Positions 1,013 to 5,837 of a stretch of DNA of 6,150 bases are shown one piece after another; within the stretch, counting starts at the first letter, position 1; the number at the start of each line of letters is the position of its first letter. This DNA is from Caedimonas varicaedens (GTDB lineage Bacteria; Pseudomonadota; Alphaproteobacteria; Caedimonadales; Caedimonadaceae): positions 1-6,150 of the forward strand of contig BBVC01000009.1 of the NCBI GenBank assembly GCA_001192655.1, given 5' to 3'. Both the position numbers and the translations under genes were made by a program. Under the pieces are notes generated by a model. The model saw only the letters and a program-made list of their open reading frames with translations, was not told the DNA's origin and did no database searches.

Positions 1013-1450
1013 CTATTGAGACCGCATCATTTTCTGCTGAAGCCCCGCGATGTACTGTTGGCTTTTGGCGATCTGATCGGCAATCATCTTCTCTTTTTTC
1101 GCAATGTTCTTGTTAAACTCCGCTGTTTGCTTGTCAAAAGCTTGTTTCTGACGATCAAGATCTGTGAGAGAGTCTCCCGATTGCCCCTCTGACGGCAATA
1201 AAGCGCCGATCACGCTATGCAAGATCTTTAATTCTTCTCCTGCAGAGAGGGTCATCTCGTCACAACACACGGCAAGCATCCGTGAGAGAATCTTGCGCAG
1301 AAACACGGAACGCGCCTGAGGAACAACTTTTTGAATGTCCGTCTCGCTCAGAGACTCTTGACCTGTCAATACTTCCCGAAGGGTTTGTAAATCCTGTTGA
1401 AACAAGCTGTCCAGAGAAGCGACCAGATCGGTCATCGATGGTGTGGTCAT
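1013..1450 (-). CDS. Hypothetical protein, 145 aa, with a predicted coiled-coil C-terminus. Last gene of the reb-linked transcription unit.
   Basis: Track ORF. Its ATG overlaps the upstream stop as ATGA (1447-1450), which implies translational coupling. SD-like GAGGAAG lies 4 nt upstream. The C-terminal half (DLDRQKQAFDKQTAEFNKNIAKKEKMIADQIAKSQQYIAGLQQKMM) is heptad-like and K/Q/E-rich. I recognise no family. Confidence 0.65.
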   Translation of the reverse strand: MTTPSMTDLVASLDSLFQQDLQTLREVLTGQESLSETDIQKVVPQARSVFLRKILSRMLAVCCDEMTLSAGEELKILHSVIGALLPSEGQSGDSLTDLDRQKQAFDKQTAEFNKNIAKKEKMIADQIAKSQQYIAGLQQKMMRSQ

Positions 1451-1863
1451 AGAACTTCCTCTTCTTGAGACATGGAGGGAACATTCCCGCGCCCTACAGG
1501 AAACCCGTTGAGAATATCATCGGCTGTGGTACCCACCTCGCCCACAAATTTAATCATATCCGTGAGAGGAATCGCAGCCTTTGCGGCGGCTTCTGCCCAT
1601 TTGGCGGCAACAGCAGGACTAGGAGAGGATGCCGCTTTTTTCATAAAGACGGCTTGGGTGGCCTGTACAAGAGCTTCTGTGTTGAGAAGGGTCGTGTTGG
1701 CGTTTTAGATCATCTGCGCCATCGACTGCGCGACAGCCTGATACGCATTGCCGGTCGCTTGCTTGGCCGCATAATCATAGACTTCTTTATTGATAAACGA
1801 TACCGGATCCGTATCAATGGTCAGCACATTCCGGACTTTGGGGTTCTCATGGGAAGAAGACAT
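1447..1863 (-). pseudogene. Divergent Reb-like reading frame of 139 codons, interrupted by one in-frame TAA (1705-1707). It is a nonsense-mutated paralog, a read-through candidate, or two small CDSs (1705..1863, 52 aa; 1447..1644, 65 aa).
   Basis: A 52-aa ORF, too short for the track, runs ATG 1863 to TAA 1705: MSSSHENPKVRNVLTIDTDPVSFINKEVYDYAAKQATGNAYQAVAQSMAQMI*. It has the SD AAGGAA 7 nt upstream. The track ORF 1447..1644 is in the same frame (1704-1644 = 60 nt) and has no SD before its ATG (..CCAAGCCGTCTTTATG). The joined sequence GNAYQAVAQSMAQMI*NANTTLLNTEALVQATQAV aligns without gaps to SMVYQAMAQSVSLSMQNATYGQQQMQAISQAITTV of the 74-aa Reb paralog. The stop sits at the conserved Q of the QNAT motif. 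Confidence 0.5.
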
Positions 1864-1900: not shown

Positions 1901-2125
1901 TTATTGTTTCAGAAGATCCATAATCTTACTTGATCCTACCGTGGTAATGGCCTGACTGATAGCCTGCATCTGCTGCTGACCATAGGTGGCATTCTGCATG
2001 GAAAGACTCACCGATTGCGCCATGGCCTGATACACCATGGACATGGCCATAGCGGGCGATTCGGCCACCACCTTCACGTTGGTCTGGGTTACGGCATCCG
2101 TAACCTGTTCATTCACTCCGGCCAT
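1901..2125 (-). CDS. RebB-family R-body protein ('Killing trait' family), short core-only paralog, 74 aa
   Basis: MAGVNEQVTDAVTQTNVKVVAESPAMAMSMVYQAMAQSVSLSMQNATYGQQQMQAISQAITTVG... carries the family hallmarks I recognise: N-terminal VNxQ(I/V)TD(A/S)VTQ(T/S)NV, then YQA, then QNATxxQQQ. SD-like AAGGAA lies about 7 nt upstream. Confidence 0.85.
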   Translation of the reverse strand: MAGVNEQVTDAVTQTNVKVVAESPAMAMSMVYQAMAQSVSLSMQNATYGQQQMQAISQAITTVGSSKIMDLLKQ

Positions 2126-2222: not shown

Positions 2223-2540
2223 CTATAAAATGCCAGGAATGAACAGGGTGTTAATGACGTCCGCAGGGATATCCGCACGGGCAACTTTCTCCGTAGCATC
2301 AGCAATGGCTTCCGTGTCCACTGCGTAAATCAGGTTGACGCCCTGTGATGTGACTGCCTGATGAACGGTATTGGTCTGTTGCTGACCAAAGGTCGCATTC
2401 TGAACCGCATTGGCAAGAGCGCTGGACGCTGCCTGATATAAATTGCTGGTGGCAACGGCAGCAGACTGCCCCAGGGTTGTGACATTGGATTGGGTCACCG
2501 CATCGGTGATCTGGTTATTGACAAATGTGGGATAAGCCAT
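2223..2540 (-). CDS. RebB-family R-body protein, long paralog, 105 aa
   Basis: MAYPTFVNNQITDAVTQSNVTTLGQSAAVATSNLYQAASSALANAVQNATFGQQQTNTVHQAVTSQGVNLIYAVDTEAIADATEKVARADIPAD.... By my hand alignment it matches the 116-aa paralog at about 73 of the first 94 residues. SD GAGGAG lies 7 nt upstream of the ATG. Confidence 0.9.
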   Translation of the reverse strand: MAYPTFVNNQITDAVTQSNVTTLGQSAAVATSNLYQAASSALANAVQNATFGQQQTNTVHQAVTSQGVNLIYAVDTEAIADATEKVARADIPADVINTLFIPGIL

Positions 2541-2570: not shown

Positions 2571-2906
2571 CTAGTAGCCGCCGTAGCGGTTGCCCTTGCT
2601 CACCATGAGCAGTCCCCTCTCAATAGATTGCAGCGTATTGTTCAGGCTGGACAACCCTTCTGACAGTTCGGATGACAGGTTCTCTGCACGACTTGAATCA
2701 GGTATTGGGATGATATGGTCGGCCAGGCTGGATAATCCCAGAATCTGGGCGTTCTGTTGGGCATAGACGGCATTATAGGCCATCAGGGCATGAGCGTGGC
2801 AGGTTGACAGTATCTGACTGGACAGGGCAATGGCGGGTGATTCCGCCATCACCGTGACGCTGGTTTGCGTCACTGAATCCGTCACCTGGTCATTGACCTC
2901 TGCCAT
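2571..2906 (-). CDS. Divergent RebB-family protein, 111 aa. Reb-like N-terminal about 60 aa fused to an unrelated Ser/Leu/Glu-rich C-terminal tail.
   Basis: MAEVNDQVTDSVTQTSVTVMAESPAIALSS... keeps the N-terminal Reb motif. The centre is degenerate: CHAHALMAYNAVYAQQNAQ replaces YQA...QNATxxQQQ. The tail (IPIPDSSRAENLSSELSEGLSSLNNTLQSIERGLLMVSKGNRYGGY) has no counterpart in the other three. SD AGGAGA lies 8 nt upstream. Confidence 0.8.
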   Translation of the reverse strand: MAEVNDQVTDSVTQTSVTVMAESPAIALSSQILSTCHAHALMAYNAVYAQQNAQILGLSSLADHIIPIPDSSRAENLSSELSEGLSSLNNTLQSIERGLLMVSKGNRYGGY

Positions 2907-2944: not shown

Positions 2945-3295
2945 TTAGGGACCGTAAGGATTTTTAGGAGTTGGGCTGTTCATCAATGACTTGAGAAGAA
3001 TGGCCGTAATGGTATCCGCAGGGATATCCGCACGGGAGATTTTCTCCGCAGCATCGGCAACCGCTGCTGTGTCTACCGCATAAATCAGGTTCACACCTTG
3101 TGTGGTGGTCGCTTGATGAATGAGGTTAGATTGTTGCTGCGCGAACGTAGCATTCTGTATCGCATTTGCAAGGGCGCTGGAGGTGGCCTGATACAAATTG
3201 CTCAGGGCAACAGCGGCGGACTCGCCAATGACTTTTACGTTTGACTGTGTGACGGCATCAGTAATCTGATCATTCACAGCGGTTGGATACCCCAT
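2945..3295 (-). CDS. RebB-family R-body protein, long paralog, 116 aa. First gene of the reb array.
   Basis: MGYPTAVNDQITDAVTQSNVKVIGESAAVALSNLYQATSSALANAIQNATFAQQQSNLIHQATTTQGVNLIYAVDTAAVADAAEKISRADIPAD... contains all family motifs. SD AAGGAG lies 8 nt upstream. It follows a 206-bp non-coding gap. Confidence 0.9.
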   Translation of the reverse strand: MGYPTAVNDQITDAVTQSNVKVIGESAAVALSNLYQATSSALANAIQNATFAQQQSNLIHQATTTQGVNLIYAVDTAAVADAAEKISRADIPADTITAILLKSLMNSPTPKNPYGP

Positions 3296-3501: not shown

Positions 3502-4437
3502 TCATGGCATTTCTCGAATATTATCATAGACATGACCAACCATTGTGGGAATTACCGCATTGCCCAGCTGCCTTTGGGCTGTTCCCGCCACAGAAGAAAG
3601 AATATGACTGTCAGGGAATCCCATCACCCGTCGCCCTTCCATCAGAGAAAGATACCGCACCCGTCCATTGATATGATACATCCCTGTTTTGCCCTGATCG
3701 GTCATTTGAGTCACCGCATGACCGGACGGGCTGTAAATCTTCTGGGATTGGCTTTTCGTGCCAAAGTAACCTACGCGTAAGGTTGTGAGGGCTTTTTCTG
3801 TCAACCGTTCAGGATGGTCATACACAAAATCAGGACGATCCCGACAGAGCCTCTCCTCCACCGTGTCTTCCAGAACATCGCTCAGATAAATCTCTTCTCG
3901 TGTAGGTTGGGGGCATTCAGACTTCAAAGGCACATCCTCCCGAATTCCCACAAAATAGACGCGAATGCGCGACTGGGGAATCCCGTAAAGAGACGCATTC
4001 AGAAGATGATGGCCTATTTTATAACCCGTATCTTCAAAAGCCTTTGCAAAAACAGAGAGGATTTCTCCATCATCGATTCTGAGAAGATGGCGGACATTTT
4101 CCAGAAGAATCAGTTTAGGTCGATGAAAGCTCACAATCCGCATCATCTCGTAAAAGAGTTTCCCGTTGCTGCACTCCACGCTCTCGCCCTTGCCAGAAAT
4201 GGTAAAGGACTGGCACGGAAACCCGCCGCATAAAATATCATGAGGGGGAATCTTCCTCACATCGATGGTTCGAATATCTCCTTTGGGCATCTCGCCAAAG
4301 TTGGCGTGATACGCCTCACGGGTTCGGGGATCAATCTCTGAGGAAAACACACACTGCAATCCTCGTTGTTCAAGAGCAACCCTGAATCCGCCAATCCCGC
4401 AAAAAAGATCGATAAAGGTGCCGCATCCTTCTATCAT
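3502..4437 (-). CDS. dcm: DNA (cytosine-5)-methyltransferase, single-domain M.HhaI-like architecture, 311 aa from ATG 4437. The track start at 4452 would add MGALA.
   Basis: Canonical C5-MTase motifs in order: I FIDLFCGIGG (AdoMet binding), IV GFPCQ (catalytic Cys), VI LLENV, VIII QSRIRVY, IX RYLSLMEGRRVMGFPD, X QLGNAV. As I remember M.HhaI, the protein is collinear with it from MIE..FIDLF to GNxV. ATG 4437 has GGGAG 8 nt upstream and sits 2 nt after the upstream gene's TAG. ATG 4452 has no well-spaced SD. Confidence 0.9.
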   Translation of the reverse strand: MIEGCGTFIDLFCGIGGFRVALEQRGLQCVFSSEIDPRTREAYHANFGEMPKGDIRTIDVRKIPPHDILCGGFPCQSFTISGKGESVECSNGKLFYEMMRIVSFHRPKLILLENVRHLLRIDDGEILSVFAKAFEDTGYKIGHHLLNASLYGIPQSRIRVYFVGIREDVPLKSECPQPTREEIYLSDVLEDTVEERLCRDRPDFVYDHPERLTEKALTTLRVGYFGTKSQSQKIYSPSGHAVTQMTDQGKTGMYHINGRVRYLSLMEGRRVMGFPDSHILSSVAGTAQRQLGNAVIPTMVGHVYDNIREMP

Positions 4438-4439
4438 GG

Positions 4440-4676
4440 CTAATGCTCCCATCCTGTGCGTTCCATCTCCTCAAAGATAAACGAATCGTAAATACCCAGA
4501 TGACCGCTGTGGATAGCGTTATCATGATTCAGTCCATATCGAAGAGAATCACGATTCATAAAGCTATACGACCCATCATGATGTTTAGTGATAATAAAGC
4601 ATCCTGCCTCGTTCCGTTCTTTGGCAATCAGGCGGGCGGTGTCTTCAAGGCTTTCAAATGGCGGATATTTGCTCAT
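4440..4676 (-). CDS. Hypothetical protein, 78 aa
   Basis: Track ORF on the same strand, packed between neighbours. Its ATG is 1 nt after the upstream TAA (TAAGATG) and its TAG is 2 nt before the methyltransferase ATG. I recognise no family. It is too small to be a restriction endonuclease. Confidence 0.55.
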   Translation of the reverse strand: MSKYPPFESLEDTARLIAKERNEAGCFIITKHHDGSYSFMNRDSLRYGLNHDNAIHSGHLGIYDSFIFEEMERTGWEH

Positions 4677-4677
4677 C

Positions 4678-4965
4678 TTAGTGGATTTGAGGCCGTTCGG
4701 GTTTCATGTTTAAAAACATCTGCTCAATATTGCCCATAATAACGCTTCGAATGATCATCAGGGATTCTTCATCCGGGGCTTGCTGAATGAGGGTATTGAT
4801 AATCGTAAAAGCCACACTCATGGGGATAGAGGCCAGAGAATCTTCAGGGATTTTGTTGCGATGAATAAACTTCTTGCCCTCGTCAAAAACATGAGCCACA
4901 CACGTATCGGTGGTCTTGATCAGGTCTTTCTGAATCTTTTTACTCGGGATATATGCTTTGGTCAT
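4678..4965 (-). CDS. Hypothetical protein, 95 aa
   Basis: Track ORF. SD AGGAG lies 8 nt upstream of the ATG at 4965. It is co-directional and tightly coupled to the next gene. I recognise no family. Confidence 0.6.
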   Translation of the reverse strand: MTKAYIPSKKIQKDLIKTTDTCVAHVFDEGKKFIHRNKIPEDSLASIPMSVAFTIINTLIQQAPDEESLMIIRSVIMGNIEQMFLNMKPERPQIH

Positions 4966-4996
4966 GGGTTACGCTCCTGTTGTTGCTCAAACTCGG

Positions 4997-5350
4997 TTAA
5001 ATGGATAAGTATTGATCATTTTTCTGACTCATTTTCTTGTAGTGATAATCTGTTGGGCTCGGCGCTCTTTTCTTCATCTTTTGCCGTGGTTTAAACGCCG
5101 ATTGCTCTTCATAGACAAAAATAGGTTTCACGCCGTTCTTTTCTATCCAGGCGTTTTGATAATCCCTCCATTCTTGAGAATGGCTTAACGCATCACCAAT
5201 CTTGGAGAGAATTTCTCTTTCGGGAAGATTGCCCTTGAGCCTGTGAAGCGGATGCTTCTGAAAGGCTTGGATATAAGCGGTGCGGGCAAGATCAAGCGGG
5301 GTCATGACGTTTTTCTTTCTCCAAAAAGACGCCAGTACAAGCGGGGTCAT
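4997..5350 (-). CDS. Hypothetical basic protein. The start is ambiguous because the start region is tandemly duplicated: ATG 5350 gives 117 aa, ATG 5305 gives 102 aa, and the track start 5368 gives 123 aa.
   Basis: The track ORF begins MQKGNVMTPLVLASFWRKKNVMTPLDLARTAY, so NVMTPL occurs twice. ATG 5350 has AAGGAA 5 nt upstream. ATG 5305 has the degraded copy (GAAAAA). Both overlap the 3' end of the resolvase gene. I recognise no family. Confidence 0.55.
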   Translation of the reverse strand: MTPLVLASFWRKKNVMTPLDLARTAYIQAFQKHPLHRLKGNLPEREILSKIGDALSHSQEWRDYQNAWIEKNGVKPIFVYEEQSAFKPRQKMKKRAPSPTDYHYKKMSQKNDQYLSI

Positions 5351-5837
5351 GACGTTTCCTTTCTGCAAAAAGACGCCAGTACAGCAAAGCCAGGGCGTCG
5401 GCTTCGTTATGATCTTGAGGGACGTGTCCCTTCTCTCGTATGGCTTCTATCATTTTTTCTTTGGAAGCACTTCCGTTCCCCGTCATAAACTTCTTGATGG
5501 TTCCCACAGGAACGCCTTCATAGGGGATGCCCTCTTGCTCGCACCATGCGGTCAGATGCGCCATAAAGCCTCCGTAGACGTGAGAAGCGTCTGTTCCCAC
5601 ATGGCGGCGCACTTCTTCAAAATACACTTCGCCTATGCCGTTATTGATGGACTTCATCTCGTCCAGCCATTTTCTGAAACGAAGGAACCGCATCCCCCCT
5701 CCTGAATACCGGTCACAGGCGAAGGACATCACCCCAGAGGTGATGTGCCCCTGGGCAAATTCGAGATAAAGATGTCCACAGCGATAAATCGCCCAGCCTG
5801 TGGTCGTGCCGAGGTCAAGGGCGAGGAGGGAGGTCAT
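5292..5837 (-). CDS. RuvC-like crossover junction endodeoxyribonuclease (phage/plasmid-type Holliday junction resolvase), 181 aa
   Basis: RuvC-fold catalytic signature: N-terminal LALDLGTTTGWA (Asp8), central VYFEEV (Glu74/75), C-terminal QDHNEADALALL (Asp142/Asp147; compare the ..ADAADALA.. region of E. coli RuvC). Its size and context, next to a methyltransferase and small ORFs, fit the phage-encoded type. The last about 15 residues are encoded by the duplicated segment. Confidence 0.8.
   Translation of the reverse strand: MTSLLALDLGTTTGWAIYRCGHLYLEFAQGHITSGVMSFACDRYSGGGMRFLRFRKWLDEMKSINNGIGEVYFEEVRRHVGTDASHVYGGFMAHLTAWCEQEGIPYEGVPVGTIKKFMTGNGSASKEKMIEAIREKGHVPQDHNEADALALLYWRLFAERKRHDPACTGVFLEKEKRHDPA
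5293..5383. repeat. Two-copy tandem direct repeat, with copy A at 5293-5337 (45 nt) and copy B at 5338-5381 (44 nt) plus 2 shared nt
   Basis: Copy A: caagcggggtcatgacgtttttctttctccaaaaagacgccagta. Copy B: caagcggggtcatgacgtttcctttctgcaaaaagacgccagta. They differ by two substitutions and a 1-nt indel. The repeat spans the resolvase stop and the next gene's start. Confidence 0.9.

Follow-up and report, generated by a model that had tools for sequence, protein, structure and literature searches.

We describe a reading frame, assigned here to a conserved gene of a reb operon, that is cut by a single premature TAA in a 6,150-nucleotide stretch of the Caedimonas varicaedens contig BBVC01000009.1 (the window). 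The explanation we favour, at a probability of roughly two in three, is a genuine and very recent CAA-to-TAA nonsense mutation that inactivated the gene. A sequence-only reading of the same DNA had listed a recently inactivated accessory subunit among its options; that option stays viable, with Gln at the site in all intact orthologues and low dN/dS. The interrupted gene, its parts and its neighbours are laid out as follows.

1447..1863, minus strand: interrupted gene, orthologue of an uninterrupted 136-146-aa reb-cluster gene of a RebB-related, HP1.2-like family
1705..1863, minus strand: N-terminal remnant of 52 aa with the gene's own weak SD (aaaggaa), deposited separately as P0157
1705..1707, minus strand: premature TAA in place of the invariant Gln53; C>T at window position 1707 on the coding strand (G>A on the plus strand)
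1645..1704, minus strand: 20 post-stop sense codons, in which the conserved segment NANTTLLNTEALVQATQAVF is still encoded
1447..1644, minus strand: C-terminal remnant of 65 aa, deposited separately as P0155, with the family's VG..A..IL..FP.G motif
2945..3295, minus strand: 116-aa RebB-family gene, first of the cluster (Pfam RebB E 2e-26)
2571..2906, minus strand: 111-aa divergent RebB-family gene (Pfam RebB E 2e-14)
2223..2540, minus strand: 105-aa RebB-family gene (Pfam RebB E 4e-23)
1901..2125, minus strand: 74-aa RebB-family gene, directly upstream of the interrupted gene (Pfam RebB E 3e-25)
1013..1450, minus strand: downstream 145-aa gene, conserved in all close loci; its start codon shares bases with the TGA of the interrupted gene (ATGA)

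A single frame interrupted at Gln53

The conceptual translation of 1863..1447 on the minus strand runs MSSS...AQMI*NANTTLLNTEALVQATQAVFMKK...EEEVL*. As first described from the letters alone, a 52-aa ORF (1863-1705) and a 65-aa ORF (1644-1447) lie in one frame, with one TAA and 20 sense codons between them. The second ORF was also said to start without an SD, and the anti-SD duplex at ATG 1644 indeed amounts to only -2.0 kcal/mol. The corresponding values are -5.6 to -8.8 kcal/mol for the starts of the four RebB genes and of the 52-aa ORF, and -6.6 kcal/mol for the start of the downstream 145-aa gene. In relatives, the codon at ATG 1644 encodes an unremarkable Met inside the protein (FMKK); we found no promoter-like site ahead of it on the coding strand.

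In a tblastn comparison, the intact 138-aa orthologue of locus L007 matches window positions 1863-1450 with 94.9% identity (E 2e-77) and with exactly one stop inside. We judge this match in one frame not to be due to chance, and from the sequence we read positions 1863-1447 as one gene, not two: the fifth gene of the reb (R-body) operon. The deposited proteins of 52 and 65 aa would then be fragments of one disrupted gene, and their records should be merged and flagged.

The TAA had been placed on a conserved Gln, one transition away from CAA. The nearest DNA agrees: L007 has ATC CAA AAC where the window has ATC TAA AAC, a single C>T with all neighbouring codons identical. Elsewhere the same site reads ATT CAA AAT (L002) or contains CAG (L001 and L003). 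Whether related genomes would carry two genes divided by a conserved stop had been left as a check, and every relative examined turns out to hold a single uninterrupted ORF with Gln at the site. A search with the joined product retrieves P0001-P0004, full-length single ORFs of 136-146 aa and 49-95% identity, each with Gln where the window has the stop. The closest relative falls in a 90%-identity cluster of 20 sequences, and our figures rest on the 15 listed: 12 relatives at 91% identity or more are intact, 137-138 aa long and carry Q53, one is N-terminally shorter and also has Q53, and the split entries are solely P0155 and P0157 of this very contig.

A stop at this position is thus seen in 0 of 16 close relatives and in 0 of about 45 distant family members. 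In the family alignment of 45 sequences Q53 never varies, and neither do G111, F121 and P122; in the 35-sequence alignment Q53 is nearly invariant. Two contigs with 97% identity (L004 and L005) end before the stop site and are uninformative for the Gln53 codon. The window's own sequence, which makes up a complete 6150-bp NCBI contig, occurs once in the collections, exact look-ups with the 52-aa, 65-aa and 145-aa products having matched no other contig, so that the TAA allele is documented by this one assembly.

Age and origin of the stop codon

Against L001 and L007, codons 1-52 have a dN/dS of 0.15-0.17 and codons 54-138 one of 0.07-0.11. The 20 post-stop codons show 0 non-synonymous and 2-3 synonymous differences in the same comparisons, and their peptide is identical in close relatives. 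Nearly all divergence on both sides of the stop thus seems to have built up under purifying selection, which means that the stop is either very recent or not real; as a lesion it would be young, since the flanking codons keep this signature. The window and L007 are 89% identical over 4.3 kb, and the 11 other syntenic genes that they share are all intact, the stop being confined to the interrupted gene; the contig as a whole is thus neither error-ridden nor decaying. Within the interrupted gene, we found no signs of secondary decay, that is, no extra frameshifts and no raised dN/dS downstream of the stop. This fits a very young pseudogene and fits an artefact equally.

Under the nonsense-mutation reading, a single C>T would have turned the CAA of the invariant Gln53 into TAA midway along the first long helix. 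No product longer than a 52-residue fragment, without most of the conserved residues, would then be made. Ribosomes terminating at the TAA would have a poor chance of reaching the next ATG, which lies 60 nt further on and has no SD. Because of such poor re-initiation the 145-aa gene, coupled to the interrupted one through the ATGA overlap, may be under-expressed too; this polar effect is one that we infer. Claims that the element makes R-bodies should note that one conserved member of the operon is knocked out in this sequence.

A sequencing or assembly error, also raised from the sequence alone, stays viable as well, the change being of one base and the allele lying in one contig. In that case, which we consider unlikely but rank as the main rival, the true codon would be CAA, the 138-aa gene would be intact, and the coding-strand T at 1707 would be a miscalled base, a consensus artefact or a minor variant taken up by the assembler. 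The single-base change with every neighbouring codon as in L007 is what such an error would look like; so is the lack of any other gene decay, dN/dS being low on both sides and the other genes intact, and so is an allele found in one short contig when at least 16 relatives are intact. What argues against it is the absence of other frameshifts or stops relative to L007 over about 4.3 kb, from which the contig does not appear to be a low-quality assembly. Moreover, a substitution error in an assembled consensus is a rare event next to the real nonsense polymorphisms of accessory and mobile-element genes, which also counts against an artefact.

Could the split gene still work? Read-through of the TAA might give a minor 138-aa product, or the 52-aa piece and a re-initiated 65-aa piece might both serve as sub-stoichiometric R-body subunits. 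In favour of this, the frame past the stop is open throughout and conserved, an in-frame ATG follows after 60 nt, and minor Reb components are known in type 51 R-bodies, namely RebD (bioRxiv 10.64898/2026.05.21.725848). However, the stop is absent from all examined relatives and so is not a selected feature. It also cuts the predicted 60-residue helix in its middle and removes an invariant Q, and the ATG at 1644 has no SD. TAA is moreover an ordinary terminator in this DNA: it ends four other window genes, including Reb116 and Reb74 (TAA-A in Reb74), and no other window gene shared with L007 contains an in-frame stop. Both release factors recognise UAA, which leaks less than any other bacterial stop. 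The window contains no tRNA, hence no suppressor tRNA was found there, and no Rfam element; together with the regular use of TAA as a terminator, this leaves both reassignment of TAA and programmed recoding unsupported. Read-through and sub-stoichiometric use, which the sequence-only reading had entertained, thus found no backing, and we consider a functional split very improbable. Even less probable, to our mind, is that the TAA allele is real and tolerated since both halves work, the Reb-like 52-aa fragment together with a re-initiated 65-aa module or with traces of read-through product altering the stoichiometry of R-body assembly as a natural on/off or dosage variant of an accessory protein borne by a mobile element.

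Two genuine small genes of 52 and 65 aa, expressed independently of each other, we regard as next to impossible. Both pieces are indeed deposited as separate proteins (P0157 and P0155), each initiated at an ATG. But the 60-nt "spacer" between them encodes a conserved peptide with 0 non-synonymous changes, the second ORF has neither an SD nor a promoter-like site, and all homologues are fused; the two-gene layout is effectively refuted by the orthologue comparison. Phase variation was rejected as well, since the site has no simple repeat and the change is a substitution. As for the origin of the C>T, deamination by the element's own C5 methylase can be imagined, purely as speculation.

Operon neighbours and the surrounding element

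Four RebB paralogues lie upstream of the interrupted gene and score 54-92 bits against Pfam RebB. The gene order, in which RebB genes with the 74-aa one as the last are followed by the orthologue of the interrupted gene and the 145-aa gene with its ATGA overlap, is the same in L001, L002, L003, L007 and two JGI contigs. The 111-aa paralogue (2571-2906) is markedly divergent, at 54 bits compared with 82-92 for its neighbours: QILS...AYNAV replaces the LYQ...QNAT core, and the C-terminal tail is distinct and Ser/Leu-rich. This divergent variant is conserved in L002 and L007.

No similarity links the 145-aa gene to HP1.1, HP1.3 or further proteins encoded beside reb genes, and its product has no Pfam, PHROG or other family match; by sequence it appears to be lineage-specific. 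Its protein contains a conserved LFLRKILSRMLAVCC segment and a K/Q-rich C-terminus that is probably a coiled coil.

Upstream of the reb genes lies a module (3502-5837) with a C5 cytosine methyltransferase and a RuvC-like resolvase. Related contigs (including L002 1-8400) add RecT, a peptide deformylase, a primase/helicase, YqaJ and an integrase fragment. The methylase and resolvase, along with RecT, primase/helicase, integrase and YqaJ in the relatives, suggest that the reb operon rides on a prophage-like or integrative element. A megablast of the window against phage and plasmid collections gave no match, and the element is absent from IMG/VR.

Positions 1-1000 of the window hold no credible ORF, and similarity to L007 stops at about 1000, just past the 145-aa gene. 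The relatives differ from one another there: L002 has small ORFs and a 323-aa protein, a JGI contig has an integrase fragment, and L007 has MFS/OEP genes. This region may be the boundary of the element or a variable part of it. At the other end of the window, a tandem duplication (5293-5383; a unit of 44-45 bp in 2 copies, 93% match) sits at the 3' end of the RuvC-like ORF and overlaps the start of a 123-aa ORF, with the repeated peptide KKNVMTPL.

In a Verrucomicrobia MAG (L006 2745-7541), four RebB-like genes are accompanied by a 116-aa member of the interrupted gene's family. Ahead of this reb cluster is a gene whose 767-aa product combines TPR-like repeats with an N-terminus resembling sigma-70, reminiscent of Pseudomonas, where reb genes are under sigma-factor control. 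In Aphanothece (L010), too, a Sigma70_r2/r4 gene and a TPR gene lie close to the locus.

The protein family and its known counterparts

The joined 138-aa product matches Pfam RebB (PF11747) with 19.9 bits (E 8e-4) over residues 18-69, across the stop, which falls short of the Pfam gathering threshold for RebB (24 bits); the 52-aa piece alone reaches 18.4 bits. A profile-profile comparison, the check proposed for Reb kinship, gives a clearer answer. With hhalign, the family aligns to the local RebB paralogues at 93.2% probability (E 2.8e-7, 70 columns), and at 95.9% (E 5e-9, 93 columns) when the 45-sequence alignment is used; both alignments cross the position of the stop. They also reproduce the ungapped alignment to the 74-aa paralogue seen at the outset, in which the stop takes the place of the QNAT glutamine: within the family's (I/V)Q(N/D)A block, which reads MIQNA in the window lineage, the Q is aligned with that of RebB MQNAT. 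The frame had been called a fifth, divergent Reb-like one. That it is one Reb-like frame holds, but to call the gene a fifth RebB paralogue falls short: it is part of a separate family of longer proteins associated with reb genes, set apart from RebB by a conserved C-terminal half of its own.

An exhaustive HMM search of 1.84 billion representatives returned 35 relatives, mostly of 105-157 aa, nearly all of which match across profile positions ~18-124. Only five of the 35 match RebB, and weakly. By profile search the family has at least 366 members, spread over Cyanobacteria, Alteromonadales, Gamma- and Alphaproteobacteria, Myxococcota, Cytophagales and a Verrucomicrobia MAG. No Pfam or NCBIfam model covers it, and its members are all annotated as hypothetical, which makes it a candidate for a new family definition. 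The consensus is G.AYQAVAQSMA..VQDA...LRN, followed by a second conserved half that ends in ...VG..A..IL..FP.G. Taken together with the profile comparisons, this points to a remote RebB homologue over the N-terminal ~70 residues, extended by the conserved C-terminal half.

The AlphaFold2 model has helices at 19-78, 83-95 and 98-120, with pLDDT >90 over residues ~41-110, and the ~138-aa protein is predicted to be all-helical. The stop falls in the middle of the first long predicted helix (60 residues) and takes away two thirds of the protein. A PDB sequence search and Foldseek on the AlphaFold2 model returned generic helical hairpins only, none with E <0.001, and viral contigs yielded no relative of the family. 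RebB genes are adjacent in 9 of the 9 family contexts inspected, from a family of at least 366 members. We infer that the family is an accessory or minor structural component of R-bodies.

Its closest published counterpart is HP1.2. In the Group 1 reb synteny of Raymann et al. 2013, HP1.2 (~110-120 aa) occurs with HP1.1 (~360 aa) and HP1.3 (~170 aa) (PMC3583457). It was described as having "no putative conserved domains", and the pattern was explicitly noted on an A. brasilense plasmid (PMC3583457). On the Azospirillum brasilense plasmid ABSP7_p3, five RebB genes are followed by a 116-aa family member and then by hypothetical proteins of 357 and 175 aa. In Pseudoalteromonas, five RebB genes are followed by proteins of 126, 360 and 180 aa. 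Family members also come directly after RebB genes in Aphanothece sacrum and in the Verrucomicrobia MAG. The family profile matches P0122 (E 8e-28), which is 69% identical to WP_035680645.1, the 116-aa hypothetical protein after the five RebB genes of ABSP7_p3. As gene order and sizes match the Group 1 pattern, the family is very probably HP1.2. Like HP1.2, the window protein is small and adjoins reb genes, and the profile links the two. Unlike it, the window lineage has a longer N-terminus and C-terminal tail (138 aa in all), is followed by the lineage-specific 145-aa gene instead of HP1.1 and HP1.3 partners, and in the window copy carries a nonsense codon. The HP1.2-type protein, formerly without a recognisable domain, thus emerges from profile-profile comparison as a remote RebB homologue, and is a candidate factor for R-body assembly or a candidate minor structural one.

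With RebB itself (PF11747; RebA, RebB and RebD of Caedibacter taeniospiralis), the window protein shares the operon, a helical character, a low-charge composition rich in Q/A/S/T and the core block ...YQAxAQSxxxxxQNAxxx... In contrast to RebB, it has neither the VNxQITDAVTQ signature nor the QQQ motif, and has an extra conserved C-terminal half of ~60 residues with the FP.G motif at its end. Dorr et al. 2026 give an N-terminal (D)QITD flanked by prolines and an NA(V/T)...QQQ motif as Reb signatures (PMC13430693). The window protein departs from this signature, with VSFINKEVYDY for VNxQITDAVTQ, and QNANTTLLN with no QQQ. A VNPQV-like start is kept in distant members of the family, such as the 116-aa protein of L006. 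By position, the gene does fall within a reb cluster, directly downstream of four RebB genes in the window, L001, L002, L003 and L007.

The same authors distinguish weakly Reb-like "secondary" groups, S1-S4, which co-occur with primary reb genes (PMC13430693). The seed of S3, htRebG (WP_068173302.1), is 113 aa long, and S3 co-occurs with group 1 in Alteromonadales and Vibrionales (PMC13430693). As the family occurs there too, S3 is its likely equivalent; this is a guess, made on size and taxon distribution and not on sequence. S4 is RapA/paRebB (210 aa, seed WP_003108962.1; PMC13430693), which co-purifies with P. aeruginosa R-bodies (PMC8322103). It differs from the family in its length of 210 aa, and no Pseudomonas aeruginosa protein appears among the family matches listed. 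As with RapA, accessory proteins of reb clusters can be of consequence for R-bodies: the assembly of type 51 R-bodies is steered by RebC, which is not incorporated, and by RebD, a minor component (bioRxiv 10.64898/2026.05.21.725848).

The lesion, for its part, resembles the ordinary nonsense pseudogenes of bacterial accessory and mobile-element genes. These likewise show one transition, an otherwise intact frame, and unaffected neighbours and orthologues, and nothing sets the interrupted gene apart from them.
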